64,000 nt of DNA from Patescibacteria group bacterium (GTDB lineage: Bacteria > Patescibacteriota > Microgenomatia > UBA8517), in the NCBI GenBank assembly GCA_035291665.1, contig DATDRP010000004.1, positions 22,272 through 86,271 of the forward strand, written 5' to 3'. A program made the position numbers and the translations under genes. The notes under the pieces are model-generated. The model did no database searches, had not been told where the DNA came from, and saw only the letters and a list, made by a program, of their open reading frames with translations. Shown here piece after piece: positions 21,384-42,128 of this stretch. Numbering within the stretch: the stretch's first letter is position 1; the number at the start of each line of letters is the position of its first letter.

Positions 21384-22229
21384 TTAGGGGTAATTAATAT
21401 TAATCGGTTTATTTGGTTTTGATTTATCTTTTTTTCTGGCAATGATAAAGGCGATGACAAGAATTAGTAATACCAAAATCGATCCACCAATTATAACCAA
21501 TTTATTATTAGGATTGAAAATTCCGGAAGTTGAAGTGTAAACCCTTTCACCTGCGGGTTGGTTAGTGTCGGGGTTTGTTTTCGGATTCAAGGAGGGAAGA
21601 GGTCCTTCCGCATCGATTCCTTCTGTGAGAGACGTTTCATCAACCGAATCTGACCCACCCGTTGAATTCTCCGTGGGAGTAATGAGTAGTGTATCGTTTG
21701 CTTTCGGATCGGTGTTTTGGTATATGTATCCGGAAAAATTAGAAACCCTGCTTAGAATGTCACCTGTACCTTGGGAAACTGCTATGTTTGAATCAACAGT
21801 GCTTCCGGGTTCAAAATAAAACCAGACTTTTGCATTGCCTTCTTTGATTGCCTGGAATTTAATTTTAGCAAGTTCTCCCTTTCCGTTATAAGGTTTGTCG
21901 GGTGAATTAACAACACCGGATACGGTTACGGAACCTGTGTCATTATTGAAAAAAACCGAAGGGAAGTCATCGTAAATATCAGAAGCGTCAATTGCAACTA
22001 CTTTCAAAAGATTTGAATTAAAGAACAGTTTTGCACCCGCACCAAGTGAATTTTCACCATCGGTGTTTATCATTACTGAGATATCAATAACATCATATTT
22101 CTTAAGCGATGCCGATGCTGGATCCAAATAAAATTCCGGATTGGCAGCATGAATCTCACTAAAAGATAACAAAAATAGACTTACCAAAAAGACACTAAAT
22201 ATTTTTAAGTGAAGCACTTTTTTATTCAT
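21384..22229 (-). CDS. membrane-anchored protein with one cohesin-like domain (putative anchoring scaffoldin)
   Basis: Signal peptide, then a ~150-aa beta-sandwich-like segment whose pattern (...GAGAKLFFNSNLLKVVAID...SVFFNNDTGSVTVSGV...GKGELAKIKFQAIKEGNAKVWF) parallels cohesin signatures. A Thr/Ser/Pro/Asn-rich linker, a C-terminal TM helix and a KKDKSK stop-transfer follow. Confidence 0.55.
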   Translation of the reverse strand: MNKKVLHLKIFSVFLVSLFLLSFSEIHAANPEFYLDPASASLKKYDVIDISVMINTDGENSLGAGAKLFFNSNLLKVVAIDASDIYDDFPSVFFNNDTGSVTVSGVVNSPDKPYNGKGELAKIKFQAIKEGNAKVWFYFEPGSTVDSNIAVSQGTGDILSRVSNFSGYIYQNTDPKANDTLLITPTENSTGGSDSVDETSLTEGIDAEGPLPSLNPKTNPDTNQPAGERVYTSTSGIFNPNNKLVIIGGSILVLLILVIAFIIARKKDKSKPNKPININYP

Positions 22230-26103: not shown

Positions 26104-28005
26104 TCACTTCCCGTAATTTCCGAACCAGATGATGTAATCAGCTCCGTTAACTATGGTATCTCTATTAAAATCTCCTGCTGATGGACCTTGGCTGGTTGTT
26201 TTTTTGTAGTTATTAAACCAGATCAAGTAATCGGCTCCGTTTACTTTTCCGTCGCCATTTGCATCCCCCGGTTTTGAAGTCGCCGTCGGGGTGGCTGTTG
26301 GAGTAACACTCGGTCCGCCGGTTGGCGGAGTAGGAGTAGATGAAGCCTGCGGTGTAGGCGAGGGTGGTATCGAACCGTTTACACTTATAGCTGTTGAAAA
26401 TTCACTTGCCAGTCCCGACCACTCAACCGATTTAACTTTAAACCAGGTATTTGATGTTGATCCTTGGTATCCGATACTGCCTGTATACAACCAGACAAAA
26501 GAGTCGTTCCAATGCTCGGCCGCGGTTGATCCCAGTACTCCTCGGACCAAGCCTGTAAACGAGGTGGGGGTCCTGCCGGTATAACTGACTAGTTCATTTG
26601 GTTTTTCGGATGACAGACCGGATATCTCCAGTGTACCTTGATCTGGAAAACCTGTTGTAGAATCTACATTAATTGAAGTTTGGTTATTTGTAATTTTGCT
26701 GGGAGCGTTCAGGTACGTTAACAATGAGGGGAGCAATGCAATCTGGTTATAAGTTCCCCCCTGGCTGGTGGAACCGTATATTTGATATTCCTTAATTTCC
26801 CGATGGTTAGGAGCGGGTTTAAAAGTGACTATTACATTACCGCCCGACGAAACCGCTTTCATATCAGAAGGTGCGGCGGGTTTCTTAAAAATAACATAGT
26901 AGAGATTTTTGTTTCCAGCTTGGCGAATATCTCCGCTAAATGCAATTTTAGTCGTATCGGGACTGAAGCTGGCGTTGACATAATCCCTGCCCGCATCACT
27001 CCCGTAATTTGCCACTCTTACCGGAGCCGATCCGGAAGTTGTGAGCGGTTGCGGAACACTGAAGACAAGAACGTGACCAACCTCGCCTCCAAGGTTAGCT
27101 CCCAGAACCATCCATTTAGCGTCAGGACTGAAGTTGGTGTGATCGCCATAAACTGCACCGTTTATCATAGTTAATTGTCTGGTTGCCGTATCTCGGGCAA
27201 AAAGAGTATTTGCATATTGAAAATCCGACCCATTCCCTCCGATCCAACCTTGACCTCCACCAATCATATAAGCAGAATCGGACAGGGTAGGATGGTCAAA
27301 AAGTCCTGCCCAGGTTTGGTTCCCTACATTAAGCTGGCCAAGAAATGTACCGGTATTAACATCAAAAACCATCGGTACATCTGTATATTGTTCCCATTGG
27401 CTATTATTAAGATACCAAGCGGCATTGTTACCCAGCCAGCCGTGGGTAACATCAAACCCACCTGACTGTCTGCCGGGGGAAACATAACCACGGCAATTTG
27501 TACCGTCAAGGTTAATGAACTTAACTGTACCTGTCCCGGAGCTGATATCGTTGGAGTTAGCAATACCTGAGAGTGTCCTTCCGTCGGGGCTAAGCATAGA
27601 AAAATAAAAAGGGAGGCAGGATGAGGCATTTGGAATTTGTGAAGATATGTTAGCGGCGATTTCTGTTTGGTAGAGATTTTCTTTTGAATAGTAGAACTTG
27701 CTGTCGTGGCTCCACCATCCCATCAGACCTTCCCCGACACCGCTGGAAGGGGCGCTTAAAGTGTGATTATTGTTTCCGTCAGTATTCATAACGTTATTAG
27801 GTCCGGTGATTATATATTGGCCATTAGGACTGAATGGGTTGGAAGTGTAATAAGAGGTAGGGTAGCTTGCAGAAGTATTAGTCATTCGCCATATTTCAAA
27901 GCCGGTTTCCGGATCGGTAAAGATTTCCTTGGGAGCTGCCTGAACAGGTGAGACAAAGATGGTAATAGTTAATATTGCGATAAAAACCTTAAACCAATGT
28001 GACAT
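26104..28005 (-). CDS. secreted beta-propeller (TolB/WD40-like) plus Fn3-like protein with C-terminal dockerin-like module
   Basis: Signal peptide, repeated propeller-blade-like segments, a Fn3-like domain, a TP-rich linker (TPTATPTATSKP) and GDANGDGKVNGADYLIWFNNY...GDFNRDTIVNGADYIIWFGNYGK. Confidence 0.65.
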   Translation of the reverse strand: MSHWFKVFIAILTITIFVSPVQAAPKEIFTDPETGFEIWRMTNTSASYPTSYYTSNPFSPNGQYIITGPNNVMNTDGNNNHTLSAPSSGVGEGLMGWWSHDSKFYYSKENLYQTEIAANISSQIPNASSCLPFYFSMLSPDGRTLSGIANSNDISSGTGTVKFINLDGTNCRGYVSPGRQSGGFDVTHGWLGNNAAWYLNNSQWEQYTDVPMVFDVNTGTFLGQLNVGNQTWAGLFDHPTLSDSAYMIGGGQGWIGGNGSDFQYANTLFARDTATRQLTMINGAVYGDHTNFSPDAKWMVLGANLGGEVGHVLVFSVPQPLTTSGSAPVRVANYGSDAGRDYVNASFSPDTTKIAFSGDIRQAGNKNLYYVIFKKPAAPSDMKAVSSGGNVIVTFKPAPNHREIKEYQIYGSTSQGGTYNQIALLPSLLTYLNAPSKITNNQTSINVDSTTGFPDQGTLEISGLSSEKPNELVSYTGRTPTSFTGLVRGVLGSTAAEHWNDSFVWLYTGSIGYQGSTSNTWFKVKSVEWSGLASEFSTAISVNGSIPPSPTPQASSTPTPPTGGPSVTPTATPTATSKPGDANGDGKVNGADYLIWFNNYKKTTSQGPSAGDFNRDTIVNGADYIIWFGNYGK

Positions 28006-28058: not shown

Positions 28059-30686
28059 TTATTTCCCGTAATTCCCGAACCAGATGATGTAATCAGCTCC
28101 GTTAACTATGGTATCTCCATTAAAATCTCCTGCTGATGGACCTTGGCTGGTTGATTTTTTATAGTTATTAAACCAGATCAAGTAATCGGCTCCGTTTACT
28201 TTTCCGTCGCCATTTGCATCCCCCGGTTTTGAAGTCGCCGTCGGGGTGGCTGTCGGTATGATCGTCGGTATGGGAGTAGATATTCCGGTTGGGAAGGCCG
28301 TTGGTATAGGTGTGGATGTTGGTACGGGACTTCCGGTGTGGACTGCTTTGATGGCAATATCTTTATTAAGACCGCTTACGGGTATGGACAATGTACCTCC
28401 AGACGAGATTACACTGGTTGTAACTGCACCGGTATAAGTATTCCAGTACTCAATATTATATGTTCCCGCCTGAAGGTTCGGGATAGAAACGGTCGGATTG
28501 ATCGTCCCTGGTGTACCGGTATTTGACCAAATATAATCCCGATGCTGTACCCAAAGATATGCCCGGTAGCGGTCTCCGCTCACCAGTGCAAAGGCGCGGG
28601 TTTTACCTCCGGTATCGTTTTGGACAGAAAGCGTAGTACCGGTGTATCCGGATGGGGTGTCGGCCGCAGTCATGACGGAGGTGAAATTACTGGTTGAAAA
28701 ACTGATATTCTGAAAGAAATTTTTCATTACAAGTTTTTCCTGATTTACTAAATTTGAATATGAGCTGTCGTTTTGATTGTCATACCAGAATATGGGAGTG
28801 GTAGCCATTGGTGAGAACAGTCCGGTCCAGGCTCCATTATGATGTGCCCGGTGGGCACCCTCTCCGGTGGTTCCCTGCGGATTTGGCTGGTTCCATTCCG
28901 TCGTTCCCACACCGATTTCACCCCAGACAAACGGGCGGGGAGCCGATCCGGGTGTCCAATCGGTGCTGTCGCCGATACCCAAACCGTCGCAGTAATATTT
29001 ACCATACTGTCGGCCGTAGAGACACCAGGCAAAACGATGCACGAAGTTGACTTCATCGTTAGTAAGAGCGGAAGAGTAGCGGCTGATCATCATATAATCA
29101 TGGTAATTGGTGAGGTTGAATGCAGGGGAGGACCAGAATGCCGGACTGAATGCCTGAGATCCCTGGGAAGTGGTGCGCATGTGCTGGTAAATATCGGTTT
29201 GCTTCTGATAATCAGCATACTGTTGGAAGAAATTAAATATTGATGTATTTGGAAGAACATGGCCAAGCTCATTATGGTTTTCCCAGGCAAGAATTGATGT
29301 TGCGTATCCCCACCGGGCCACACGGTAACGGAAATTCCGCTGCCAGCTTTTCAGTACCCACGGTTGCGACCAGTCCCAGGAATCAGGCGATTCAGGGTTA
29401 CCCGGCCAGGTAAACCAGGGACCCGAGCAGGAACAAAGCTGGATATAGACACTATTGGTTACTCCTGCGTCGATATACTGATCTTGCAGCCAGCATTCTT
29501 CCGGATTGAAGTAATTACCTAACGGACGGGGTAGCGTTGTATTCGAATTCGGATCGTTATTGACATTATCCTTGGCGAAATGCCGTTCCATATCACCGTC
29601 TGTTACTATCGAATAAAGGATGTTTCCCTGCGCGTCTACCGGTCCGAATTCAACATCATCAACATAACCACTACCTTGGAAGTAGACTACTAGATCCGAT
29701 GAAGGAGTATATGTGCGTTCTGAAAGGGTATAACTGGTGGAGTTGGCGTCGATCTGGGTGCCGGAGATTACGCTTCCCGGAAGCACCCCATTCAGTGACC
29801 TGAGGGATACGGTGACAGTGCCTTTGGTCCAGACTTTTAATTTATGGGAGCGGTTGGGTTCGGTGACAGCTAAACGTTGATACCAGGCTGTTCCGGGTTG
29901 AGCTGCCCTCATACCGGAATGGGTATTAGTATTGATTGTTACTCCGACGGCAGCCCCGTCTGTCGTGGAAGCATTAATCCAGGTTGTATGAGCGCCTTCG
30001 ACCCCCAGTGAAAAATCATTCTGGTCCCAAATCCGGATCAAATTAATTCCGTACTGCTTATCCTGAACAAATCTGCTTTCGTAGTTATCTCCCCAGGGAT
30101 ACCCGCGGGAAAGGGGGACATATGACGAGCCGTTGTCAAACACCATGTACCGGGGATCCTGTGGATTAGGCTTTATAAATCCCGGATTGGAATTGTCGGC
30201 TGTGATGCTGAAAGTTTGGGCAGAGGTTTGGGTCTTACCTTCTTTATCTTCAGCACTGACAGTATAAGAATAAGTTCCGACCTCCGACCAGGTGAACCGT
30301 CCTTTCCACACGGGAAGACCGGACTTACCCATAACATTTCTGCTTCCGACAATGTGCCGGGTGTAATCCTGGTAAAAGAATGCCGGAAGTACAAGCTGTT
30401 TACCGCTGGGTGTAGTGATGTTGATATTAACGGTTACTCCATCCACACCAAACCATGTCATACGCGACGGGTTTGCTGCCTGGGTGTCAGACGGATCGTA
30501 GAAATAATAAGGATTGGGGTACGTTTTGGATAGATTAAATGAGAATTCGATTTTCTGATATTTTTTAACCGATGCTGACGAAGGAGAAACCGTAACAGGT
30601 CCGGTAACCTGCGGGGCGGCTGCCTTTACCGGTACAGAAGAAATAGCAAGAAATAAAAAAATTAGAATAGCTTTTTTATATAGCAT
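28059..30686 (-). CDS. secreted putative glycoside hydrolase (N-terminal beta-sandwich plus TIM-barrel-like domain) with C-terminal dockerin-like module
   Basis: Signal peptide. An internal segment LAWENHNELGH is reminiscent of a clan GH-A catalytic NE motif, but the family is unassigned. The C-terminal linker and dockerin are nearly identical to those of the 26104 gene. Confidence 0.55.
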   Translation of the reverse strand: MLYKKAILIFLFLAISSVPVKAAAPQVTGPVTVSPSSASVKKYQKIEFSFNLSKTYPNPYYFYDPSDTQAANPSRMTWFGVDGVTVNINITTPSGKQLVLPAFFYQDYTRHIVGSRNVMGKSGLPVWKGRFTWSEVGTYSYTVSAEDKEGKTQTSAQTFSITADNSNPGFIKPNPQDPRYMVFDNGSSYVPLSRGYPWGDNYESRFVQDKQYGINLIRIWDQNDFSLGVEGAHTTWINASTTDGAAVGVTINTNTHSGMRAAQPGTAWYQRLAVTEPNRSHKLKVWTKGTVTVSLRSLNGVLPGSVISGTQIDANSTSYTLSERTYTPSSDLVVYFQGSGYVDDVEFGPVDAQGNILYSIVTDGDMERHFAKDNVNNDPNSNTTLPRPLGNYFNPEECWLQDQYIDAGVTNSVYIQLCSCSGPWFTWPGNPESPDSWDWSQPWVLKSWQRNFRYRVARWGYATSILAWENHNELGHVLPNTSIFNFFQQYADYQKQTDIYQHMRTTSQGSQAFSPAFWSSPAFNLTNYHDYMMISRYSSALTNDEVNFVHRFAWCLYGRQYGKYYCDGLGIGDSTDWTPGSAPRPFVWGEIGVGTTEWNQPNPQGTTGEGAHRAHHNGAWTGLFSPMATTPIFWYDNQNDSSYSNLVNQEKLVMKNFFQNISFSTSNFTSVMTAADTPSGYTGTTLSVQNDTGGKTRAFALVSGDRYRAYLWVQHRDYIWSNTGTPGTINPTVSIPNLQAGTYNIEYWNTYTGAVTTSVISSGGTLSIPVSGLNKDIAIKAVHTGSPVPTSTPIPTAFPTGISTPIPTIIPTATPTATSKPGDANGDGKVNGADYLIWFNNYKKSTSQGPSAGDFNGDTIVNGADYIIWFGNYGK

Positions 30687-30696
30687 TTATTTTGAT

Positions 30697-33342
30697 TTAT
30701 TTTATAGTAATTTGACTCGGATCGGTGGCGAATATCACCGGATCACCTTGGAAAAATTCCACTTTACCTTCAACCCAAATTGATTGGTGAAGCTGGTAGT
30801 CTTTTTCTATATTTGGGAAGTTGCTTAATTGTTCAACCGGGATTAAAACCTGTAACAACTGACTGTGAGGCTCATCGCAACTAAGGTAATAGTAACGGCT
30901 GCTTTTATGAATATATTTTATTTCGCAAGATGTTTTTATGTTTTGGAATTCGTATCCGATTGCGTAAAAGTAGGCAATAGATTGTGGTGGTCCTGATTCG
31001 ATATCAGCACCCAGCTGAATATTGGAAATCCCTGCAACCTCCGGAGATGATATTGTATTTGTATCAGCTTGAGTTCCTACATCTTTCAGAACAAAAATGG
31101 TGTTATTTATACTTTTGACTATAATATATTTTCCGCTTACCAGAACATATGGATTGATTGTCCAACCCCGCCCGTCAGCGTAAAATCCGTCGGGATAGCT
31201 ACGGTTACCACCTTCTGCACAGAGGTTAGTACACCAATGTGTAGTAGTGTTACAATTGCCGCACTGCTCCGCTGAAACGAATGGAGTATAAGAACCATTA
31301 ATAGGGTTTGTAAAAGTGGCACCGCGACTGTCACTTCTGTCAGTGATTTTCAGCCCTTCCAGTACAGCCAACCAGTGTGAGTGAAAAACCATATCACTGG
31401 AACCGGAAACCATACCCTGTTCATCCGTTTGGATATCAATAAACTTAACAAATCGAGCATCACCTCCGGTATATCCGGTGACAGTAGAATTATCCAAGAC
31501 CATTTCACCCATGGTGGCATCCTCACGGTAATCACACCAACCGCTGGCACAGGTTTGACCATTGCTATAGATTATGTACGCCACCTGCTTACCATTAGAA
31601 AGAGTACGGACAGCTGGTTGGGGACCGGAATAAAGCCAACCATTACCAAAAGCTCCAAATTTAATGGCTGGGGTAAACATTCGGGCACCTGTGTCCAAAC
31701 TCAAAGCGAAGAGGGTTTGATAATTAGGATTCGCATCAAGGGTTTGTTTAATACCGGCGTTTGTGGTCGGCATGGGAGAAGCAAAATACATTGCATTGTA
31801 ACCATGGCGCATTCGCATGAGTACAATTCCTGTATTGTCAGCGATGACAGGCCAGTTATGTCGGAATTCGTAACAGGCGCTACCTTCTCCGTCCGAGCCA
31901 CAATACCAATTGTTTGTTGTTGGTTTTACATTCCATCGGAGGGTACTACTACTATTGTTGATCGCTCTGACTCGTAAATCCGGATCAGTTGCATAAACAA
32001 TCACATCATACCGGGCGGAATATGAAGGCATGGTAACTTGATTAATACCTGAACCGGGGTTATACGGCCACCCGCCACCCGGAGAACTAAGGTTCGCTGT
32101 AGAAAGTTTATGTAATTTTCCATCATTGGCGGTAAAATAAACATAGTTTCCAGCAATTAACGGGGAAGTGGTTAAACTTGCTCCGGCATTAAAACTATTG
32201 AGCGTTGTACCGTTTGATCCGTTTAATTTGTATAATGTATTTCCAGATGCAACAAAAACTGCATCTGTACCCGAATCATATGCTGCCGAACTGTTAAGAC
32301 CTCCAAGACTTTTTGTCCAAATATTTGATCCATTGGTAAGATTCAGTGCGTACAAAGTTCCGTTTCCAGCCGGTACATATACTCGATTATTTCCGACAGT
32401 CGGGTAGACTTGATACTCAGAAACGGAATCTACATCGCTTCTCATCCATTGGTAAGCCCAACTATTTGAAAGGTCAACGGTATTCCATCCGGTTCTCTGA
32501 GCGTTAAAAGCGTGTTGGCTCCATTCGGTGGTGGGATTACTTGGCATCAGAGTCGGGGTTGGACCACTTGGTGTGGGGGTTGGCTGTTGGACTGTCGGAG
32601 TCGGAGGGACAGGTGTATTGGTTGCATTGGGAACAGGCGTATTTGTCGGATTGGGTGTGGGATTGGGTCCTGATGTATTTATGGTAATTCTATCAATGTC
32701 GGGTGCATACCCTGTATTATTAAGGAACCTTATAGTGTTATTTCCGGATGCAAGACTTACCGATATAGCTTTTGATGCAACTGTTGTCCAGCTTCCTGAA
32801 TTGGCGAATGAGTACAAAGCTGCAGCACTGCCGTTTATGCTTATTGACACATCCCGGTTGGGATCGCCGCTAATATAATATACAGTCATCGTGTAGGCAG
32901 CTTGTGAAAGAGAACTAATATTATTAAATTGAAGGTAATTCCCCGAACCTCCACCTATCCAGCCTACAATTTGTCCGCCTGAACATGTTGTACAGCTTCT
33001 TGCAGCAACAGCTCCCGCAAATGTATTTGAAGTTGATTCCGCTTCATATGAGGCAGTTCCTCCACCTATCGGAGTTGGAGTGGGGCCAACCTTACCGTAA
33101 TTATTAAACCAGATGAGGTAATCGGCTCCGTTCACTATGGTGTCACCATTAAAATCACCGGCTGATGCTCCCTGACTGGTTGACTTTTTATAATTGTTAA
33201 ACCAGACAATATAGTCGGCTCCATTTACTTTCCCGTCACCATTAGCATCTCCGGGAAGCGGTGATTGAGCTGCAGCATAATTGGAGCATGTTAAAAATAT
33301 TAAGGAAAATACCAATACAATCTTAAAATAAAGATTTCTCAT
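30697..33342 (-). CDS. secreted PQQ-like beta-propeller protein with N-terminal dockerin-like module
   Basis: Signal peptide, then PGDANGDGKVNGADYIVWFNNYKK...GDFNGDTIVNGADYLIWFNNYGK, a TP linker, PQQ-like repeats (YALNLTNGSNIWT...) and a Cys-rich C-terminal domain (WCDYREDATMGEMVLD). Confidence 0.7.
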   Translation of the reverse strand: MRNLYFKIVLVFSLIFLTCSNYAAAQSPLPGDANGDGKVNGADYIVWFNNYKKSTSQGASAGDFNGDTIVNGADYLIWFNNYGKVGPTPTPIGGGTASYEAESTSNTFAGAVAARSCTTCSGGQIVGWIGGGSGNYLQFNNISSLSQAAYTMTVYYISGDPNRDVSISINGSAAALYSFANSGSWTTVASKAISVSLASGNNTIRFLNNTGYAPDIDRITINTSGPNPTPNPTNTPVPNATNTPVPPTPTVQQPTPTPSGPTPTLMPSNPTTEWSQHAFNAQRTGWNTVDLSNSWAYQWMRSDVDSVSEYQVYPTVGNNRVYVPAGNGTLYALNLTNGSNIWTKSLGGLNSSAAYDSGTDAVFVASGNTLYKLNGSNGTTLNSFNAGASLTTSPLIAGNYVYFTANDGKLHKLSTANLSSPGGGWPYNPGSGINQVTMPSYSARYDVIVYATDPDLRVRAINNSSSTLRWNVKPTTNNWYCGSDGEGSACYEFRHNWPVIADNTGIVLMRMRHGYNAMYFASPMPTTNAGIKQTLDANPNYQTLFALSLDTGARMFTPAIKFGAFGNGWLYSGPQPAVRTLSNGKQVAYIIYSNGQTCASGWCDYREDATMGEMVLDNSTVTGYTGGDARFVKFIDIQTDEQGMVSGSSDMVFHSHWLAVLEGLKITDRSDSRGATFTNPINGSYTPFVSAEQCGNCNTTTHWCTNLCAEGGNRSYPDGFYADGRGWTINPYVLVSGKYIIVKSINNTIFVLKDVGTQADTNTISSPEVAGISNIQLGADIESGPPQSIAYFYAIGYEFQNIKTSCEIKYIHKSSRYYYLSCDEPHSQLLQVLIPVEQLSNFPNIEKDYQLHQSIWVEGKVEFFQGDPVIFATDPSQITIK

Positions 33343-33466
33343 ACTATGTACGGAAGTTTAATATACTTCTTAAGTCTATCTTACGAAGAATTTAATTATC
33401 AAGGACTAATTTGTAATTGGCCACAGAAGCCTGATATAAGAGTATATAAATAGTATTGGAAAGTTA
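33343..33466 (-). promoter_or_regulatory. conserved intergenic promoter region upstream of the 30697..33342 gene (duplicate of 37169..37291)
   Basis: The ~120-bp intergenic sequence is about 90% identical to the region upstream of the paralogous PQQ gene. On the minus strand it contains TTGATA...TATATT-like elements. Confidence 0.35.
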
Positions 33467-34699
33467 TTATTTGTTGTAGTTACTAAACCATACAATATAG
33501 TCAGCTCCGTTAACTATGGTATCTCTATTAAAATCTCCTGCTGATGGACCTTGACTGGTTGATTTTTTATAATTTGCAAACCAGATCAAATAATCCGCTC
33601 CGTTAACTTTCCCGTCACCATTTGCATCTCCGGGTTTGGAAGTCGCCGTTGGGGTGGCTGTCGGTATGATTGTCGGTGTGGGAGTAGGAGTATTGATAAC
33701 TCCGGATGTCGGAGTCGGGGAGGGGGGGCGCACTGTTGGTGTGGGAGACGGATTAACAGAAATTCCCGCGTTGGTCAGAATTTCCGTATCAGAAAAGAGT
33801 GTAAACGTTTGTGCGTATTTGCTGTTCATTGGTTCCATGAAGAGCTTATTTGAAAGCATGCCGTTAAGAACCGTACCCATATGACTGTCACTCATTACAG
33901 CGTTGTGAGGTTCATTATTGAATGAAGTAAGGCTTATTGTTTCGCCGGCAATCGTAAAACTGGTTCCGGCAAGTTGTGTACTTGCCCATTTATTAAAATC
34001 AAATAACGCGAGATTCCGTTGGGAAGCAATTGTTGCTATTCCCTGATTGACTGTATTAATAGCCTGGGTGGCACGTTGGCGTCCGGTTGCATTTGGGTAA
34101 AGCGATTGGATAAGCAAAAACTGCCCGGGATCACCGATGTTGGCAATTATTATTGGTATGTTTTTGGTGTTCAGGATTGTATCAACAGCGGTAGTAATAT
34201 TTGCAAGAATTCCGTTTATTTTTGATTGAATTTGGGCATCAGTCATTGTGCCGTTGTAAATTGGATCGTACGTGGCAACAGCAGGGTTAGGACTGAAATC
34301 ATTTGTTCCGATCCAAATTACTGCATGGGTAACCAATCCTTGTTGTACTTGTGAAGCCAAACCTGTATGTTGTCCCGAAGTAATCATGGATGACGCGTTA
34401 GCGGCAGTTCTTGCCCAATTGTATGCATACCCGCACCGTCTTGGTTCCGAACGGCATCCCCAAGCTCCCGCATTAACACCCCGGTATTTCACCAAAAGCT
34501 CTAACCAATTATAAGTTGTTGCACTATAGCTTCCACCCCGGTTATCATCAGCCCTGTATTCATCGGTATTGCTATCACCCAATATACCCAGCCCGGTAAT
34601 CGGCGCCCCTAATACTTTACCTGTAAAAAAGAGCTGGAAAATGAGTACCAGTAAGAAAATTTTAATTTTTGAGTTTTTCAATTTCAATTTAAGGTTCAT
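33467..34699 (-). CDS. secreted SGNH/GDSL-family hydrolase (esterase/lipase-like) with C-terminal dockerin-like module
   Basis: Signal peptide, a GDSNTD block-I motif (ILGDSNTDEY) and WIGTNDF. C-terminal TPTPT linker and dockerin. Confidence 0.7.
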   Translation of the reverse strand: MNLKLKLKNSKIKIFLLVLIFQLFFTGKVLGAPITGLGILGDSNTDEYRADDNRGGSYSATTYNWLELLVKYRGVNAGAWGCRSEPRRCGYAYNWARTAANASSMITSGQHTGLASQVQQGLVTHAVIWIGTNDFSPNPAVATYDPIYNGTMTDAQIQSKINGILANITTAVDTILNTKNIPIIIANIGDPGQFLLIQSLYPNATGRQRATQAINTVNQGIATIASQRNLALFDFNKWASTQLAGTSFTIAGETISLTSFNNEPHNAVMSDSHMGTVLNGMLSNKLFMEPMNSKYAQTFTLFSDTEILTNAGISVNPSPTPTVRPPSPTPTSGVINTPTPTPTIIPTATPTATSKPGDANGDGKVNGADYLIWFANYKKSTSQGPSAGDFNRDTIVNGADYIVWFSNYNK

Positions 34700-34855
34700 A
34701 TAATTTTCCGCTTAGTAATTTCTTGGTTATTGCTATTATTTATATTACCCTGTTATGGAATATTTTTAAACTGTCTTTAAAAAACCCTTCCTGGGCGGTG
34801 AGTATTTCATAAGTAAAGAGAGCGGCCTTTGAAAACCATAGATATTAAAGTTGGA

Positions 34856-37168
34856 TCATTCGACTATTTCTAACTGCCTTGGATCAGTCAGTATGATTTC
34901 CGGGTCAACGTTTTCGGGCCAATAAAGAGTTATTTTACCTGTTACCTGGACATTTTTACCCTTTAACGTCATTGGATCAAAAGTAAATTTTGACAGGTCT
35001 TGTGCAAAAATCCGAAGCAACAAATATCCGTCATGCGGATCAGTAAATCCAAGGTAAATCGCTTTCGGTAGATTATCTTTCGCTGAAACGATGCGTCCGG
35101 TTATGGTTACAACTTTATTAATATAGTTATCTGCTTCGTCATAAGTTATAACCGGGATTCCAGAATCGCTATTTTGTACTCCCAGGACTGTTTGATCTGA
35201 ACCAGTATCTGTTATCAGATTTTCGCTATCGGCATTTGCTGTTGGGCTGCCGTTTTCAAAAACCATTAAAGCGCCGTCGTTGGTTTTAAGAAGAACCTGA
35301 TTTGCGGATACGATTGTATACGGGCTAGAACCCCCATTTCTGTCGTTCATATACTCGTAAAAACCCGGAGGGTATGATCTTGTATCGCCATATGAATAAA
35401 GACCTTGCGAACAATATCTTGATGATGATAACGTGCAGCTGCTTTGACATACGGGAGGATTCGAGCAGCCCGGGTAATCGCAAGGAGACGTACAGCCGGC
35501 AACCCCGCCGGGACAGGTACATTGTCTCCAGATAACAAACGGTACATTTTCACTTGCAATTGGATTTGTAAATGTTAAACCCAAGTTTGAACTTCTATTC
35601 GTGATTCTAGCTGCAGCGTTAATCAACCAATGTCCATGAAAAATAATATCTTTAGACATCGTCAAATTCATCATCTCGTCGGTTTGGGTGTCCTGATATT
35701 TGATAAACCGTACATCTCCTGCCTGGTAACCGGAAACGGAGCTCGCATCCAAAACCATTTCACCCATTGTTGCATCCTCCCGGCCGTCGCACCATTGTCC
35801 GCTCGGCGGCGGGCAATTGCCGGGCGTAGAACAGCCTCCGCAGGTTAAAGCATTCCGCCAGATGATATAAACTACTTCTTTCCCGTCGCTCGTGATTGCA
35901 ACTACCGGCTTCGGGCCTAGCGATAAACTGCCTCCATCACCCGAGCCTCCGTTGCCAACTGCAGGCGGTACGTACGATGTTGCATCGCTCCAGCTTGTTG
36001 TTTTGCCTGAAACTGGCCATGCCGGAAGCCCGCTATCCAGATTTATGGCAAATAATGCTTGATCACCGGGTTTACCCTGAAGGTAACTTTTAATCTCACT
36101 ATTAGTATTGGGAAACATCTTATCCGTCCAAGTTGTCCATGGCAAGCGATACCGGACAAAGACTATGCCGTGGTTTTCAGCCACCACAGGCCAACTGTTG
36201 TTAAATTCTATTGATCCGGCAGAGTAAGTATTGATGGTAGGTTTAACTTTCCAAACCTGCGCCCCTGTTACTGCATTCACAGCATGTACATACAAATCCT
36301 GTGAATTGGCAATCAACAAATTCCGAGATGTTGAATAAGCTGGAGCGGTTACCAAAGTGTTGCCGGAATTATATGACCATACTTGCGTCATGTTGTCGGT
36401 ATTTACGGAAATTAAATTGGTAACAGCGGATAAATAAATTCTGTTATTAACAAGAAGGGGAGCGTAATTCAAAGCCTTCCCTGAGTTGAAAGTTCCGGTG
36501 ATTGCCCCGGTCGAGGCGTTGATTTTGTATAAATTGCCATTTGTTGAGGCAACATAAAGAAGCTCATTATTATAAACCGGCGAGGAATTCAGAGCTCCAA
36601 GTGCTGTATTCGACCACATAACGTTTCCGTTCGTTTTGTTCAAAGCATAAACTCCACCTTCTGAAACCATATAAATTCTACTTCCGCCGGTTATCGGTTG
36701 GACCAATCCCGGGACGCTCAAATGTCCTGTCTGAGTTTTTGCATCACTACCAGACCCGTTCCATTGCCAAATATGTTTCCAAGGTAAAGCTACAGTTTGG
36801 GTGGTAAAATTTGTCCTTTGTACGTCGTGTCCGAATTGAGTCCACTCACTTATTGTTGCCGGAACCGGAGTAGGTGTTGGTCCGGATGGTGTTGGAGTGG
36901 GCGAGATCCGTCCGTAATTATTAAACCAGATGAGGTAATCGGCTCCGTTTACCATGGTATCCCCATTAAAATCACCGGCTAGTGCGCCCTGACTAGTCGA
37001 CTTTTTATAGTTATTAAACCAGACCAAATAATCAGCTCCGTTTACTTTCCCGTCACCATTTGCATCTCCGGGTAGGGAAGATTGAGCTAATGCATAATTG
37101 GAACACGAAAGTAATAGTATTGAGGATATCAGTATCGTTTTAAGATGTAGATTACTAATCTTTTTCAT
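34856..37168 (-). CDS. secreted PQQ-like beta-propeller protein with N-terminal dockerin-like module (paralog of 30697..33342)
   Basis: Same architecture as its paralog, and they share WCDGREDATMGEMVLD and N-terminal dockerin sequences. Confidence 0.7.
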   Translation of the reverse strand: MKKISNLHLKTILISSILLLSCSNYALAQSSLPGDANGDGKVNGADYLVWFNNYKKSTSQGALAGDFNGDTMVNGADYLIWFNNYGRISPTPTPSGPTPTPVPATISEWTQFGHDVQRTNFTTQTVALPWKHIWQWNGSGSDAKTQTGHLSVPGLVQPITGGSRIYMVSEGGVYALNKTNGNVMWSNTALGALNSSPVYNNELLYVASTNGNLYKINASTGAITGTFNSGKALNYAPLLVNNRIYLSAVTNLISVNTDNMTQVWSYNSGNTLVTAPAYSTSRNLLIANSQDLYVHAVNAVTGAQVWKVKPTINTYSAGSIEFNNSWPVVAENHGIVFVRYRLPWTTWTDKMFPNTNSEIKSYLQGKPGDQALFAINLDSGLPAWPVSGKTTSWSDATSYVPPAVGNGGSGDGGSLSLGPKPVVAITSDGKEVVYIIWRNALTCGGCSTPGNCPPPSGQWCDGREDATMGEMVLDASSVSGYQAGDVRFIKYQDTQTDEMMNLTMSKDIIFHGHWLINAAARITNRSSNLGLTFTNPIASENVPFVIWRQCTCPGGVAGCTSPCDYPGCSNPPVCQSSCTLSSSRYCSQGLYSYGDTRSYPPGFYEYMNDRNGGSSPYTIVSANQVLLKTNDGALMVFENGSPTANADSENLITDTGSDQTVLGVQNSDSGIPVITYDEADNYINKVVTITGRIVSAKDNLPKAIYLGFTDPHDGYLLLRIFAQDLSKFTFDPMTLKGKNVQVTGKITLYWPENVDPEIILTDPRQLEIVE

Positions 37169-37291
37169 ACTATATACGGAAGTTTTGTATAATTGTTAAG
37201 TCTATCTTACGAAGAATTTGATTATCAAGGACTAATTTGAGTTTAGCCACCAGCAAACGATATACATATATATAGTAGTATGGTAAAGGTA
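37169..37291 (-). promoter_or_regulatory. conserved intergenic promoter region upstream of the 34856..37168 gene (duplicate of 33343..33466)
   Basis: See the 33343..33466 entry. Confidence 0.35.
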
Positions 37292-39649
37292 CTATTTGTT
37301 GTAGTTACTAAACCAGACAATATAGTCGGCTCCGTTAACTATCGTATCTCCATTAAAATCTCCGGCTGATGGGCCTTGTGTCGTTGACTTTTTATAGTTA
37401 TTAAACCAAACCAAATAATCGGCTCCGTTTACTTTTCCGTCACCATTGGCATCCCCCGGTTTTGCAGCATTTGTAGGAGTAGCAGTTGGAGTAAGACTGG
37501 GTCCGCCGGTTGGGGGAATAGGGGTCGGACTGATCGGGGAGATTTGGGTTGGTACAACAAGGTAAAGGGGAAATCGGGTATCTGTAGAAACCCGGACCGT
37601 ACCCGCATTTGCATCAAATACCGTGTTAAGCTGTACCACTGTTCCGTCATCGTTCACACCGGATATATTTAGATTTTTACCACCGGTTGCAAAGGTAATG
37701 GTAAAAGAGGTAGGAACAACCAAACGCGTATTTGATTCACTACCCCAACTGGTCACTGTTTCACCGTCGACCGTACCGGTGAATCCCGCAGCATTGGTAA
37801 CAGTCTGGTAAGAGTGAACAAACAGTTTGGCCGATCCGGAGAATAAGGGATAATTGGCATCACTCCTGATCATAACTAATGCGTTTTCCATAGGTGTTAC
37901 CCCTGACAGGGTCATCGGACCGATGGTGGTGTTTTTAAGATCGTTGACTAAACCGACGACTGCCGGGGCGTTAATTGTCACGCCGGTGCTTTTGGCAAAT
38001 ACCTGGCCTCCCGGAATCTGTATACCTGCTGCAAATTGTGTATCTGTTACTTTAGGATAATTACTAACATTTTGTGGAGAACCAAAGCTCATATAGAGCC
38101 GTTTGAGCCAATATCCGCGTTCAGAACCATCCCAGCCGTTTTGAAAGGAAAATGGAGAGAGAGCTAGTGATCCTTTAGACACTTGTTGGGCAAGATATTG
38201 AGAATTTTCAAATACGGAAACATGTTTTTCCGGCAGAGGATTTATAAACCTATATTCGACGATTGGCCCTGCTAATAGATCGCCCAAGCGGCGTGACGGA
38301 GCACCTACATGATGGTGGATATACTGGATACCTGACGCTTTTGCCTGATATAACGCTTGAGATTCATTGAAAACCAAAAATCCCGATGTTTGTTGCAGAC
38401 TATGGACAATAGCCTCCAGGATTGTCCTCTCGTAATCCCAGCGGTTAAGACCGTAATCGCCGACTTCCGGAACAGTGAATGGTGTATTTTCTAAACGACT
38501 GCCATCCATCGCCATACTCCAAAAGAAACCATTCGGATCCCGAAGAATACTTGTGCGCGTCTGGTAATTAGGCGGGTTGGTGATGGCATCACCTGAAGGA
38601 ACCCGTGCATAAATATGGCGGGAAGAAATATTGGTATTGGCAAGCACATGCCCGTCCATATAATTAAAAGTATTCATTACAACCAGAATATTGGGATTTA
38701 AGGATTTGAACCAGTCATACATATCTTTTGAATATTCGATCTCAGTATCACTCATAAACTTCACGAAATTTGATTTGTCTGTTGTAGTCCACCCATTGTA
38801 TGTGCTTTTTGCAGGAAACTGATTACCGGGAAGTGTCCAGCCTTTACCGGCATAATACGTACGGATCTTCGTATCAAGCTCCGGTTTCCAATACGCATTG
38901 GGGTCTGACGGATTAAGGATATTGTCAAACCATCCATTATGGCTGAAATATGCATCGGACAATCCATCTTCATTATACGGTTGCCAGATTATTCCGGGAT
39001 TATCTTTATATTTGATGCCTGTCTGGGTATTGATCCGATCGGCAAACCGTAGAATATGGACCTTTGCGATTTTATCTCGAAATTCCCTGCTCCAACTCAT
39101 ACCAAATGATCTGTAAACACCGACCGGATATCCTGACCGTGCTGCTGCATTTTCAAAAAAGAAACCTCCCATCCAGATCTGCATTCCCATTTGGTTGGCC
39201 CGGGCAATGGTTTTATCAAGCTGTACCATGCATTTTTCGGAAAGATCAGTTCCGGTTGGACCAGCCCAACAGCTATAACTGGCTGCGGAAGTGGTCATAT
39301 CCTTGACGTCATATCCCATCACACGTATAGTATTGAAACCTGCTGCGGCAATTCGTTTGATAGTTTTCAGATTATCTTCATCCGTCATATAACTGGTTGC
39401 GCCGATAGCAGCTGAGCCTTCATTTAATCCGGTACCAAAAATAATGAATTCCTTGCCACTGCGCATTAGTTTGCCGTTTTCAACAGTTAACCAGGATGTG
39501 ATTGGTGGCCGAGATGGTGCAGCCGCCTGACCGAAACTGCTGTCCCAGGCTGGATTCCAATCGATAAGCACAGATTGGGCATTTAGTGATGAAATAGGAA
39601 ATAAAAGAAAGAAAGAGGTCACCAGAAAACAGCGAAAAAAAGTTTTCAT
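37292..39649 (-). CDS. secreted glycoside hydrolase family 5-like protein with C-terminal dockerin-like module
   Basis: Signal peptide. GH5-like blocks AGFNTIRVMGYD and IWQPYNEDG (NE acid/base) in a TIM-barrel-sized N-domain. C-terminal beta-rich domain, linker and dockerin. Confidence 0.55.
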   Translation of the reverse strand: MKTFFRCFLVTSFFLLFPISSLNAQSVLIDWNPAWDSSFGQAAAPSRPPITSWLTVENGKLMRSGKEFIIFGTGLNEGSAAIGATSYMTDEDNLKTIKRIAAAGFNTIRVMGYDVKDMTTSAASYSCWAGPTGTDLSEKCMVQLDKTIARANQMGMQIWMGGFFFENAAARSGYPVGVYRSFGMSWSREFRDKIAKVHILRFADRINTQTGIKYKDNPGIIWQPYNEDGLSDAYFSHNGWFDNILNPSDPNAYWKPELDTKIRTYYAGKGWTLPGNQFPAKSTYNGWTTTDKSNFVKFMSDTEIEYSKDMYDWFKSLNPNILVVMNTFNYMDGHVLANTNISSRHIYARVPSGDAITNPPNYQTRTSILRDPNGFFWSMAMDGSRLENTPFTVPEVGDYGLNRWDYERTILEAIVHSLQQTSGFLVFNESQALYQAKASGIQYIHHHVGAPSRRLGDLLAGPIVEYRFINPLPEKHVSVFENSQYLAQQVSKGSLALSPFSFQNGWDGSERGYWLKRLYMSFGSPQNVSNYPKVTDTQFAAGIQIPGGQVFAKSTGVTINAPAVVGLVNDLKNTTIGPMTLSGVTPMENALVMIRSDANYPLFSGSAKLFVHSYQTVTNAAGFTGTVDGETVTSWGSESNTRLVVPTSFTITFATGGKNLNISGVNDDGTVVQLNTVFDANAGTVRVSTDTRFPLYLVVPTQISPISPTPIPPTGGPSLTPTATPTNAAKPGDANGDGKVNGADYLVWFNNYKKSTTQGPSAGDFNGDTIVNGADYIVWFSNYNK

Positions 39650-39733
39650 AATAAAGCCTTATATCATTTTGTTGCGGTTGAACATTGAAGTCAAGTGGTG
39701 TCAATGTTGTTTATCTCGAATATTAACAAAAAC

Positions 39734-40897
39734 TTACTTTCCGTAATTACCAAACCAAACTAAATAGTCTCCACCATTAACAAATCCATCCTCGTTAAAG
39801 TCTCCTGCTAATGCTCCCTGGCTGGTTGATTTTTTATAGTTATTAAACCAGACCAAATAATCCGCTCCGTTTACTTTCCCGTCGCCATTAGCATCCCCCG
39901 GTTTTACAGCAATTATCGGGGTAGCTGTTGGAGTAAGACTGGGTCCGCCGGTTGGGGGAGTAGAAGCACCGGGGATTGAACTTGCAATCCAAACAGATCC
40001 TTGCCGAAGATCGCCGGTTATACCGTTACCACTAGCGTCATTCAAAATATATCCCGTCCCATTACCCTCATCCAGGTGATATAAAAGTAGTGTATTTATA
40101 TCATTAATGTATGGATTTGAGGGAGGAGTAAAACTTCCCTGATACCGTAAATTATTTGAGATCCTCAGTTCATCAAAATAACCGTTGTATGATGGATATT
40201 GACTTCCTGCATCATGTTTTTCAGCAGCAATGACAAGGTATGGGTCGCTCTCATTACAACTCGGTCCGGTTGAAAGATTAGTACAGCAGGTTGAACAGGG
40301 GACTGCGTTATCGGGATAAGATATTACTCCGTCAGGTCCGTCTGCTTCTGCCCTGACAATCCCGTCAACAAAGATCCACATATATCCATCCGATATTCGT
40401 CTCTCAATGGCAACATGGTGCCAAATGTCGTCAAGTACGGTATTACCACCGCAGATTGTGCGGTTTCCCGTACCGTTACCGCTGACGCCGAAAACCAATT
40501 TTCCGCCGGCAATTGATAAGCCGAATTTTCTGTCCTGGTTAAATCGGTCGCGGTCGATGACAATATTTCCGAATATCCAGTTGTCATTTGTTCCGCATGC
40601 GACGGATGAAGATGTATTATCAGCGCTTTTTGCTCTCATCCAAAATTCCAATGTAAAATCAGTATCTCCGATATCAGCAGCAGTACTTTCTGAATTTTGA
40701 CCATTAATTGGAATTTTAATCCGATCGAGCTGATTTGTGCCGGTTCCGTTAAACTTGAGAGCCGATCCAAAATCTGCGTAAGCTTTATTAAAGTTTGATA
40801 TTAAAAGAAAGAAAGCCGTAAGAAAAATAGTTAATAATCTCAACTGAAGGCTAATTGTAATTTTGTTTTTGAAGCGCTTTGTTAACATGATGTTCAA
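39734..40897 (-). CDS. secreted LamG/concanavalin-A-like lectin domain protein with C-terminal dockerin-like module
   Basis: Signal peptide. LamG-like pattern (LEFWMRAKS...DDIWHHVAIER...FDELRISN). C-terminal linker and dockerin (GDANGDGKVNGADYLVWFNNY...GDFNEDGFVNGGDYLVWFGNYGK). Confidence 0.7.
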   Translation of the reverse strand: MNIMLTKRFKNKITISLQLRLLTIFLTAFFLLISNFNKAYADFGSALKFNGTGTNQLDRIKIPINGQNSESTAADIGDTDFTLEFWMRAKSADNTSSSVACGTNDNWIFGNIVIDRDRFNQDRKFGLSIAGGKLVFGVSGNGTGNRTICGGNTVLDDIWHHVAIERRISDGYMWIFVDGIVRAEADGPDGVISYPDNAVPCSTCCTNLSTGPSCNESDPYLVIAAEKHDAGSQYPSYNGYFDELRISNNLRYQGSFTPPSNPYINDINTLLLYHLDEGNGTGYILNDASGNGITGDLRQGSVWIASSIPGASTPPTGGPSLTPTATPIIAVKPGDANGDGKVNGADYLVWFNNYKKSTSQGALAGDFNEDGFVNGGDYLVWFGNYGK

Positions 40898-41018
40898 GTA
40901 TCAGGGAAAATAAAACCATAATCAATGGTATTTTTATCAACTACTGGACAGTGAAGGGGAGTTATTGGATAATGTAAGGAATTTGTTTGTGGGTAAGAAA
41001 TATTAATTTTTAATATAT

Positions 41019-42128
41019 ATGAAAGGACTCGAATTTCCGATAATAGGCACAAAAGCTTCTTCAACCGGTGATGTATATTCCAATTCAGGGAGCGGAAAAA
41101 TCGAAAAATTTGATATCAATTCACCGGGCGGCAGGAAAGAATATTTTGAGGCAAAAGTCGGAGATGAGATCAATCATATCAAAGATTTCTTAAAAGACAG
41201 GACTTTTATTGCCTATATGCTTGGTAAAAAGGGGTCCGGTAAAGGTACGTATTCAAAACTTTTAACTGAGGTTTTTGGTGAAGATAAAATGGTAACAGTA
41301 TCTGTTGGGGATTTGATTCGGGAAGCCGATGATTGGGAAAATTTCAAAAAAACCGAGAAATATGAAAAATTACGGAAATACTATCGGGGGTATGTTTCAT
41401 TTGATGAGGCAGTTAAGGCGCACCTTTCCAGAAGTACTTCAAAATTGCTGCCAACAGAATTTATTCTGGCTCTGGTTAAAGCTCACATTGACGGATTACA
41501 GCGTAAATCAATTTTTATTGACGGATTGCCAAGGGATTTGGATCAGGTATCCTACTCGCTTTATTTTCGCGACTTAATTGCTTACCGGGATGACCCCGAT
41601 ATGTTTGTCTTGATTGATATTCCGGAATCAGTAATCGACGCCAGAATAAAAACAAGGGTTATCTGCCCAAAATGCAGCCTATCGCGTAATTTGAAACTTC
41701 TTCCGACCAATAATGTCGGTTTTGATTCCAAAAAAAGAAAGTTTTATTTACTTTGTGATAACACTGATTGTGAAGGTAACGGTACAGAAATAATGGTAGG
41801 AAAAGAGGGAGATGACAAAGGCATAGATCCGATCAGGAAGCGGTTGGATAAAGATGAAGAAATTCTCAAAAAAGCATTCGATCTTTACGGTATTCCGAAG
41901 ATACTGCTTCGTAACCACGTACCGGCAACAGAGGCAGGCAAGTACTTTGATAGTTACGAGCTCACACCTGATTTTGATTATACGATCGACAAAAAAGGCA
42001 AAATTAAAAAGACCGAAAAACATTGGACGTTTAAGGACGATAACGGTATTGAATCGTACTCTCTTATGGCAGCAGCGGTTGTTGCAGTCTTCATAAAGCA
42101 GCTTGCAGAAGTATTAGGGGAAATTTAA
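41019..42128 (+). CDS. adk: adenylate kinase family protein with N- and C-terminal extensions and a Cys4 zinc LID
   Basis: - P-loop: GKKGSGKGT.
- NMP-binding core: FILALVKAHIDGLQRKSIFIDGLPRDLDQ.
- LID: ICPKCS...CDNTDC.
- C-terminal: RKRLDKDEEILKKAFDLY.
These are collinear with canonical Adk, but the protein is 369 aa. Confidence 0.7.
   Translation: MKGLEFPIIGTKASSTGDVYSNSGSGKIEKFDINSPGGRKEYFEAKVGDEINHIKDFLKDRTFIAYMLGKKGSGKGTYSKLLTEVFGEDKMVTVSVGDLIREADDWENFKKTEKYEKLRKYYRGYVSFDEAVKAHLSRSTSKLLPTEFILALVKAHIDGLQRKSIFIDGLPRDLDQVSYSLYFRDLIAYRDDPDMFVLIDIPESVIDARIKTRVICPKCSLSRNLKLLPTNNVGFDSKKRKFYLLCDNTDCEGNGTEIMVGKEGDDKGIDPIRKRLDKDEEILKKAFDLYGIPKILLRNHVPATEAGKYFDSYELTPDFDYTIDKKGKIKKTEKHWTFKDDNGIESYSLMAAAVVAVFIKQLAEVLGEI

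Follow-up and report, generated by a model that had tools for sequence, protein, structure and literature searches.

Within a 64,000-nucleotide (nt) stretch of contig DATDRP010000004.1 from a Patescibacteria group bacterium (hereafter the window, whose positions serve as coordinates throughout), all long open reading frames between 21384 and 40897 lie on the minus strand, and nine consecutive genes with a Pfam Dockerin_1 module are followed by one gene for a predicted membrane-anchored cohesin. We focus here on four of these genes, which in the direction of transcription encode a 785-residue protein, the β-propeller protein PQQ-B, a GDSL hydrolase and a second propeller protein, PQQ-A. The 785-residue protein and the hydrolase each end in a dockerin, and the propeller protein that follows begins with one. 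The two dockerin-to-dockerin junctions, A (GDSL/PQQ-A) and B (785-residue protein/PQQ-B), resemble each other at the DNA level across the gene boundary. We propose that this resemblance most likely reflects ordinary concerted evolution rather than a fresh tandem duplication of two genes. The elements involved are as follows.

37292-39649, minus strand: gene for the 785-residue protein, with a C-terminal dockerin (Dockerin_1, its only Pfam match) and a catalytic part without a known family
34856..37168, minus strand: PQQ-B gene, 770 residues, with signal peptide, N-terminal dockerin, Pro/Thr (PT) linker, PQQ-like β-propeller and C-terminal OB-like domain (Pfam)
33467-34699, minus strand: GDSL hydrolase gene with a C-terminal dockerin (Pfam Lipase_GDSL_2, Dockerin_1)
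30697..33342, minus strand: PQQ-A gene, 881 residues, with signal peptide, N-terminal dockerin, CBM6, PT linker, PQQ-like/BamB-like β-propeller and C-terminal domain (Pfam PQQ_2, CBM_6, Dockerin_1)
36888..37462, minus strand: junction copy B, comprising the dockerin-coding 3' end of the 785-residue protein gene, the spacer, and the PQQ-B signal peptide, N-terminal dockerin and start of the PT linker (self-blastn, identity profile; identical in four independent contigs)
37295..37459, minus strand: C-terminal dockerin of the 785-residue protein (Pfam Dockerin_1, 24.3 bits)
37169..37291, minus strand: intergenic spacer B, 123 nt, from the stop codon of the 785-residue protein gene to the PQQ-B start codon (fold z-score -0.2)
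37196..37239, minus strand: 44-nt core B, with TTGATA-18 nt-TAGACT at 37228-37199 (43/44 identical to core A)
37073..37168, minus strand: PQQ-B signal-peptide codons, residues 1-32 (alignment to PQQ-A)
36908..37072, minus strand: N-terminal dockerin of PQQ-B (Pfam Dockerin_1, 28.0 bits)
33071..33637, minus strand: junction copy A, comprising the dockerin-coding 3' end of the GDSL gene, the spacer, and the PQQ-A signal peptide, N-terminal dockerin and start of the PT linker (self-blastn, identity profile)
33470..33634, minus strand: C-terminal dockerin of the GDSL hydrolase (Pfam Dockerin_1, 22.9 bits)
33343..33466, minus strand: intergenic spacer A, 124 nt, from the GDSL stop codon to the PQQ-A start codon (81.7% global identity to spacer B; fold z-score -1.2)
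33370..33413, minus strand: 44-nt core A, reading CAAATTAGTCCTTGATAATTAAATTCTTCGTAAGATAGACTTAA on the gene strand, with promoter-like TTGATA-18 nt-TAGACT at 33402-33373 (43/44 identical to core B)
33256..33342, minus strand: PQQ-A signal-peptide codons, residues 1-29 (alignment to PQQ-B)
33091..33255, minus strand: N-terminal dockerin of PQQ-A (Pfam Dockerin_1, 25.6 bits)

Comparison of positions 20001-43000 with themselves by blastn returned a single long direct repeat, 33071-33637 against 36888-37462, with 81.3% identity over 578 alignment columns (E 3e-155); megablast against the same locus in another assembly gave 81.9%. All of the many other matches (~160-220 nt, 70-97% identical) fall within dockerin-coding segments. 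In transcription order, each copy of the repeat comprises the last ~165 nt of the upstream gene (Pfam Dockerin_1), the spacer of 124 or 123 nt, the propeller signal peptide and the N-terminal dockerin. An earlier note on this DNA had described such a repeat at almost the same positions and with the same content (a C-terminal dockerin, a ~120-bp spacer and a PQQ signal sequence with dockerin), and both descriptions hold. Its estimate of ~90% identity fits the dockerin stretches and the spacer core but not the repeat as a whole, which is 81-82% identical and uneven.

A profile in 30-nt sliding windows gives the limits of the repeat. Identity is 73-93% in the C-terminal dockerin part, reaching 90-93% beside the stop codon; 70-77% in the distal intergenic part; 97% in the spacer core; 57-63% in the signal-peptide codons; and 80-100% in the N-terminal dockerin, with most dockerin windows at 83-100%. 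Beyond 33070 on one side and 33643 on the other, it falls to 43-57%. With the exception of the signal-peptide dip, this is a bounded tract of the kind expected from gene conversion, 70-100% identical in most windows inside and 43-57% in the flanks. Overall DNA identity is 81% in the junction versus 48% in the propeller bodies. What the two junctions specifically share starts roughly in the last third of the C-terminal dockerin, takes in the spacer, the signal peptide and the complete N-terminal dockerin, and extends into the first codons of the PT linker.

The similarity is not confined to coding dockerin segments, the outcome that the earlier note had named as refuting its observation. Over their whole length the two noncoding spacers are 81.7% identical, compared with at most 53% for other spacers of the cluster and with a mean of 54% and a maximum of 60% for shuffled sequences. 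The motif shared between them is identical at 43 of 44 bases (33370-33413 and 37196-37239), and a 44-column window this clean is unexpected given 23 differences in 126 columns (P = 0.005), which indicates conservation beyond that of the rest of the spacer. Its TTGATA-18-TAGACT site matches the sigma-70-type promoter consensus at 9 of 12 positions in both copies, and sites of this quality are about as frequent in the region (33 found) as in shuffled sequence (36 expected). We propose that both propeller genes probably have their promoter, with adjoining regulatory bases, in this core, in which case the two would be transcribed from equivalent promoters. The suggestion of the earlier note that a promoter had been copied along is thus a fair description of a block of homology that includes noncoding sequence with a predicted promoter-like site.

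The core appears to be private to these two junctions. No third copy was found in the window with 14 mismatches tolerated; none was found among 81 loci of relatives, apart from the same organism's own contigs; and the 21-nt core word had no match in the genome_contigs set. A role as general promoter of the cluster or the genome was therefore discarded. A structured RNA or riboswitch was likewise rejected, as neither spacer has an Rfam match at E <= 1 and their folds are no more stable than those of shuffled sequences (z -1.2 and -0.2); a hairpin that may form around CTTCGTAAG/CTTAAGAAG in copy A has no counterpart in copy B. Upstream extension of the propeller reading frames into the spacer is blocked by an in-frame TAA 18 nt before the ATG. 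An extracytoplasmic function (ECF)- or sigma-I-type promoter at the CGTA of the core lacks a matching -35 element at the right distance. As a separate observation, none of nine cluster genes has a recognizable Shine-Dalgarno sequence (GGAGG-like) in the 20 nt before its start (e.g., 33343-33362, 37169-37188 and 34700-34719), and TTGACA-like -35 boxes occur 30-60 nt upstream of several of these start codons.

The genes that meet at the junctions have a different history. PQQ-A and PQQ-B share 34% protein identity over ~700 residues, and their propeller bodies are 48% identical in DNA, with a proportion of differing synonymous sites (pS) of 0.82, which is saturated; pS is still 0.81 in the best-conserved protein block. 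PQQ-B matches BamB-type propellers of the PDB by sequence, and other genomes encode more than 40 proteins related to it (43-68% identity). With these proteins PQQ-A shares only 32-38% identity; its own nearest relative, P0057, is at 52%. Because each propeller has closer relatives elsewhere, the split between PQQ-A and PQQ-B predates these lineages. N-terminal dockerins are common in both propeller subfamilies of other genomes (such as P0073, 39% identical to PQQ-A, but not P0057 as called). The two upstream enzymes can be aligned with each other only in their Pro/Thr linker and dockerin, and the 785-residue protein has no NCBIfam or PDB sequence match. Gene order points the same way. In the closest relative, a DUF5060-type gene rather than a GDSL gene comes 3 nt after the PQQ-B orthologue; PQQ-A is followed by a DUF5060-type gene after 10 nt; and P0057 likewise precedes a DUF5060-type gene in L010. 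On contig L005, a PQQ-B-type gene adjoins a second, more distant propeller gene. Judged by these comparisons, the propeller paralogues are old, and the neighbor they have kept is the DUF5060-type gene rather than the upstream enzyme.

Several further features of the propeller genes were recorded. Members of both subfamilies adjoin DUF5060-type genes in several unrelated contigs, with gaps of at most 10 nt or overlapping calls (28059-33342 in the window, 1933-5876 in L010, 3-2710 in L009 and, with the order reversed, 1208-6089 in L005), a conserved pairing that suggests a functional link between the two. On L005, the C-terminal dockerin of the DUF5060-type gene lies 95 nt before the propeller N-terminal dockerin, forming another dockerin-to-dockerin junction. 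A CBM6/CBM35-like module occupies residues ~99-222 of PQQ-A (32680-33070, minus strand), between the N-terminal dockerin and the propeller; it is absent from PQQ-B, P0073 and P0057 and has PT-linker sequence on both sides, and it looks like a lineage-specific insertion. The last ~90 residues of each propeller protein form a domain that faintly matches the OB fold (tRNA_anti-codon; 34856-35100 and 30697-30950, minus strand), and at 10107-10610 of L005 a similar OB-like protein is encoded as a separate gene directly after a 921-residue propeller gene, which suggests fusion or fission with the propeller gene. The sole DNA-level match between the propeller bodies (31492-31539 against 35747-35794, minus strand; 83% over 48 nt) encodes the strongly conserved WCD-REDATMGEMVLD, which every relative read retains and which is a candidate functional site of this uncharacterized propeller family. 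Finally, the only PQQ-B relative in the genome_contigs set (49% identity) lies on L081 (CAYUPO010000001.1), a record labeled 'uncultured Gammaproteobacteria bacterium', which has the same propeller architecture with an N-terminal dockerin and a second gene with a near-identical dockerin; either the label may be wrong or the system may be present outside Patescibacteria.

The contrast between young junctions and old genes depends on how dockerins evolve in this cluster. The four modules at the junctions all score at or above the curated Pfam cut-off for type I dockerins (PF00404, 22.9 bits). Eight dockerin modules were read, and they consist of two tandem segments of ~22 residues, each a D-x-N/D-x-D-G...D calcium loop followed by a helix (GDANGDGKVNGADY... 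and GDFNGDTIVNGADY...). Across the cluster, with the divergent fn3-gene module left out, nonsynonymous divergence (dN) is 0.015-0.145, indicating purifying selection. If all of these modules must fit the same cohesin, selection would keep the proteins nearly identical, and this protein-level constraint would in turn leave direct repeats of ~165 nt, 76-97% identical in DNA, scattered through the cluster.

Protein-level selection alone, however, leaves DNA less similar than what we see at the junctions, as two sets of comparisons illustrate. Pairs of an N- and a C-terminal dockerin in the window are 78-91% identical in protein, yet their synonymous divergence (dS) is 1.1-1.9 or saturated. Dockerins from a single genome among the relatives are ~91% identical in protein and 74% in DNA (L081), or ~72% in both (L005). 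Between genomes, the dockerins of orthologous propeller genes are less alike still (62% in DNA for the window versus L005, 48% versus L081) and resemble other dockerins of their own genome; among the matches listed from a metagenome scan with the signal-peptide-dockerin peptide, no dockerin exceeded 62% identity, and most came from other organisms. The N-terminal dockerins of PQQ-A and PQQ-B, in comparison, are each other's best match, at 87.9% DNA identity, dS 0.59-0.63 and pS 0.43. The adjacent signal peptides are homologous and more diverged (68% DNA identity, dN 0.28, dS ~1.2, pS 0.60, one 3-codon indel).

There is also evidence that pieces of dockerin are copied. The GDSL dockerin is a mosaic: its first third is closest to the PQQ-B N-terminal dockerin (94%), its middle third to the dockerins of the 875-residue protein and PD40 genes (88-89%), and its last third to that of the 785-residue protein gene (94%, compared with 76-78% to the PD40 and 875-residue protein genes), with which it uniquely shares the ending VWFSNYNK. 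A Sawyer-type permutation of polymorphic sites, using the sum of squared condensed fragments (SSCF), supports this mosaicism with p = 0.0002 without the PD40 sequence and p = 0.007 with all seven sequences. The most recent exchange lies elsewhere in the cluster.

26108..26301, minus strand: linker and C-terminal dockerin of the PD40 gene, 97.4% identical over 194 nt to 28063-28256 in the 875-residue DUF5060-type gene

With dS 0.09, this is the youngest copied cassette of the cluster, far younger than the junction repeat, and the strongest sign in the DNA that module copying is still going on. Together with the mosaic dockerins it demonstrates that copying occurs here, and from these comparisons dockerin similarity is read as purifying selection on the protein with DNA copying on top. 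The Pro/Thr linker before the dockerin belongs to the shared cassettes as well (28059-28279, 33467-33687, 37292-37525, 39734-39966 and 26104-26337, minus strand). One linker, TPTATPTATSKPGDANG, is common to the PD40, 875-residue protein and GDSL genes, and another, PPTGGPS(L/V)TPTATP, to the 785-residue protein, LamG and PD40 genes; these differing combinations suggest that what is exchanged is often a linker together with its dockerin (~220 nt).

Taking these observations together, we consider it probable that a gene conversion of ~570 nt occurred between the two dockerin-flanked junctions, carrying the promoter-like spacer along, long after the propeller paralogues had split. Homologous recombination without exchange of flanks would have begun in one dockerin repeat and resolved in the other, the dockerin repeats serving as homology arms. 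In one or a few such events, one junction would have received from the other the end of a C-terminal dockerin, the complete spacer including the promoter-like site, the signal peptide and the N-terminal dockerin. Relative to the propeller genes the transfer would be late, as the tract is younger than the genes around it (N-terminal dockerin dS 0.59 against saturated bodies, with each paralogue closer to foreign relatives than to its partner); it would nevertheless not be recent, given a dS of ~0.6 and a spacer that differs at 18% of positions. Afterwards, the parts under little constraint (signal peptide, distal spacer and synonymous sites) would have drifted to ~60-75% identity, and the dockerin codons and the 44-nt core would have remained conserved.

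Several observations weigh against this proposal. The whole C-terminal dockerins of the GDSL and 785-residue proteins are 86.7% identical (dS 0.75), hardly closer to each other than to that of the 875-residue protein (84.8 and 85.5%, dS 0.77-0.78); only the last ~55 nt are specifically shared, and the upstream end of the tract is uncertain as a result. Divergence is uneven along the tract (Jukes-Cantor distance ~0.2 in the spacer, dS ~0.6 in the dockerin and ~1.2 in the signal peptide), so that a single event needs the help of additional selection on the spacer and of sampling noise across 20-35 synonymous sites; several shorter events would fit equally well. The promoter assignment depends on a 9/12 consensus match of a kind that is no rarer in shuffled sequence. 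Finally, the nearest PQQ-B orthologue (P0002) is only 68% identical and sits on a 2.7-kb contig that lacks its 5' end and hence the junction.

The strongest competitor, which we nonetheless think unlikely, holds that independent short exchanges homogenized three segments separately (the pair of N-terminal dockerins, the spacer, and the C-terminal dockerins in their last third), the pieces adjoining one another only because every gene of the cluster bears a dockerin. The patchy profile with its dips in the signal peptide (57-63%) and distal spacer (70-77%), the segment-to-segment variation of the divergence estimates, and the fine scale of the dockerin mosaics, with switch points every ~50 nt, would all follow naturally. 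However, the signal peptide and the distal spacer still align, above the shuffle mean of 54% and with a common CSNYA-AQS motif, so that homology is continuous across the junction; the dips sit exactly where the weakest constraint is expected; and the pS values of signal peptide and dockerin (0.60 and 0.43) are only ~1.3 standard errors apart.

Somewhat less credible again is a history in which the propeller gene and its upstream region were duplicated in tandem long ago, no exchange followed, and purifying selection alone preserved the dockerins and the promoter. Selection on the dockerins is indeed strong (dN 0.05-0.15 with dS often above 1), N-terminal dockerins occur in both propeller subfamilies elsewhere, and a promoter core could be conserved by selection. 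Such a history does not account for an N-terminal dockerin pS of 0.43 next to bodies at 0.82, a value that is also below those of the N- versus C-terminal pairs (dS 1.1-1.9) under equal protein constraint. Nor does it explain why the non-core spacer and signal peptide still align at 57-77% when the split between the paralogues predates lineages whose orthologous dockerins are only 48-62% identical, and the permutation test supports mosaicism.

The earlier note had read the locus as a tandem duplication of a unit made of a PQQ gene and a C-dockerin enzyme gene, and hence as actively expanding. Two consecutive units with the same order, orientation and shared junction do invite that reading, which the protein comparisons make very improbable: apart from linker and dockerin the two enzymes show no relationship, the propellers agree at 34% of residues and are saturated at synonymous sites, each propeller is closer to proteins of other genomes, and the PQQ-B orthologue of the closest relative precedes a DUF5060-type gene, not a GDSL gene. 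Divergence is not uniform over the supposed unit (pS 0.43 in the N-terminal dockerin versus 0.82 in the body), and the junction copies differ at 18% of positions with a dockerin dS of ~0.6; the only really young copy is 26108-26301 versus 28063-28256. The picture of a diverged propeller center between homogenized ends survives for the center and the 5' end but not for the other end. As for an assembly artifact, a collapsed or chimeric repeat can practically be dismissed, even though ~80-97% repeats can mislead assemblers and the contig is assembled from a metagenome, since ENA and JGI assemblies of different samples (the Rifle aquifer series is among the sources) agree over the same 22 kb at 100% (or 99.995%), two short contigs from Rifle that extend across junction B independently give the same arrangement, and the ~100 positions that differ between the copies allow reads to be placed unambiguously.

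The remaining members of the cluster are listed below in transcription order; the four genes described above lie between the first and the second of them.

39734-40897, minus strand: LamG + dockerin gene (Pfam)
28059-30686, minus strand: 875-residue DUF5060-type gene with dockerin (DUF5060 match weak, under the Pfam cut-off)
26104-28005, minus strand: PD40 + dockerin gene (Pfam)
24533-25858, minus strand: fn3 + dockerin gene (Pfam)
22254-24500, minus strand: F5/8C + dockerin gene (Pfam)
21384..22229, minus strand: cohesin gene, 281 residues, last in the cluster, with signal peptide, ~150-residue β domain, Pro/Thr-rich linker and C-terminal transmembrane helix (NCBI name, homologues, AlphaFold2/Foldseek)

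The assignment of the last gene as a cohesin draws on several lines of evidence. Its product has no Pfam match to the cohesin family (PF00963) even at E 10, and a profile of its family reaches the 4ums cohesin at E 0.065 only. On the other hand, an identical protein is named 'cohesin domain-containing protein [Patescibacteria group bacterium]' by NCBI, and four homologues that are 31-36% identical (BLASTP/alignment) carry PF00963. The AlphaFold2 model has a predicted local distance difference test (pLDDT) score of 76-91 in blocks covering residues 31-140 and matches the cohesin fold, a nine-stranded β-sandwich (jelly roll). The top 50 Foldseek matches in the PDB are all cohesin modules, the best being 1g1k_A (E 9.5e-10), with target-normalized template modeling (TM) scores of 0.72-0.75 for the best matches. 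This protein is presumed to be the common partner of all dockerins of the cluster, and from its predicted gene products the cluster is a small cohesin-dockerin surface-display system in a genome of the Patescibacteria, or candidate phyla radiation (CPR). A mobile element was considered for the locus and rejected, there being no inverted repeats in 28000-42000 and no transposase.

These data change how the locus should be read. It does not appear to grow by fresh gene duplication; rather, its genes exchange short modules, and because they swap end modules, similarity at gene ends is unfit for dating the genes themselves. The cluster would be a compact display system in Patescibacteria with one membrane-anchored cohesin and nine dockerin proteins, in which selection for a common partner creates DNA repeats and the repeats allow recombination to move a promoter and a targeting module across a gene boundary. 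It may thus offer a small, clean example of protein-interaction modules driving concerted evolution. A bolder extension, which we put forward as speculation and regard as doubtful, is that the dockerin repeats act as built-in homology arms that move promoter/signal-peptide/dockerin and linker-dockerin cassettes among the genes of the cluster, with the 44-nt core as a dedicated site that co-regulates both propeller genes. If so, recombination would reshuffle both the repertoire of surface proteins and their regulation.

Concerted evolution by gene conversion is well established among bacterial repeats and paralogues, including duplicated tuf genes, rRNA operons and repeat-bearing families of surface proteins. 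The junctions described here share with the classic cases a discrete tract of high identity in old paralogues, lower synonymous divergence inside the tract, mosaic sequences and flanking homology for exchange. They differ in that the homology arms would be two dockerin copies in different genes and that the tract spans a gene boundary with a promoter-like spacer.

The uniformity of the dockerins also has a precedent. Species-specific conservation of dockerins in cellulosome-producing Clostridia is the subject of Pages et al. (1997, Proteins 29:517), as listed in PMC6487960. The modules of the present cluster resemble those of Clostridia in being near-identical within a genome and different between genomes, which is expected if each set has to fit its own organism's cohesin, and in their duplicated 22-residue calcium-loop segment. 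They are unlike them in having a CPR host; in the single cohesin seen here, anchored by a predicted transmembrane helix rather than by an S-layer homology (SLH) module or sortase; in cargo that is mostly not recognizable as cellulases (PQQ-like propellers, GDSL, DUF5060-type, LamG, PD40 and F5/8C proteins); and in two dockerins that are N-terminal.

Full-text searches for dockerin together with candidate phyla radiation or Patescibacteria returned passing mentions only, among them one essential dockerin-domain protein in a Saccharibacterium that is mentioned in PMC10633639, and a full-text search for dockerin together with 'gene conversion' returned nothing relevant. Closer in organization are the non-cellulosomal cohesin-dockerin systems described by Peer et al. 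(2009, FEMS Microbiol Lett 291:1), as cited in PMC6487960, and the minimal system of one cohesin and one dockerin in Cellulosilyticum lentocellum (Allan et al. 2026, PMC13487519). The present cluster is like these in having a single-cohesin protein with dockerin partners encoded nearby and no multi-cohesin scaffoldin. Unlike the minimal systems, it combines nine dockerin genes in one cluster with evidence of modules copied between them, and its cohesin-dockerin binding is a predicted one. The mechanism, in other words, is a known one, since concerted evolution is textbook knowledge and dockerin uniformity has been described, and it is the setting that is uncommon.

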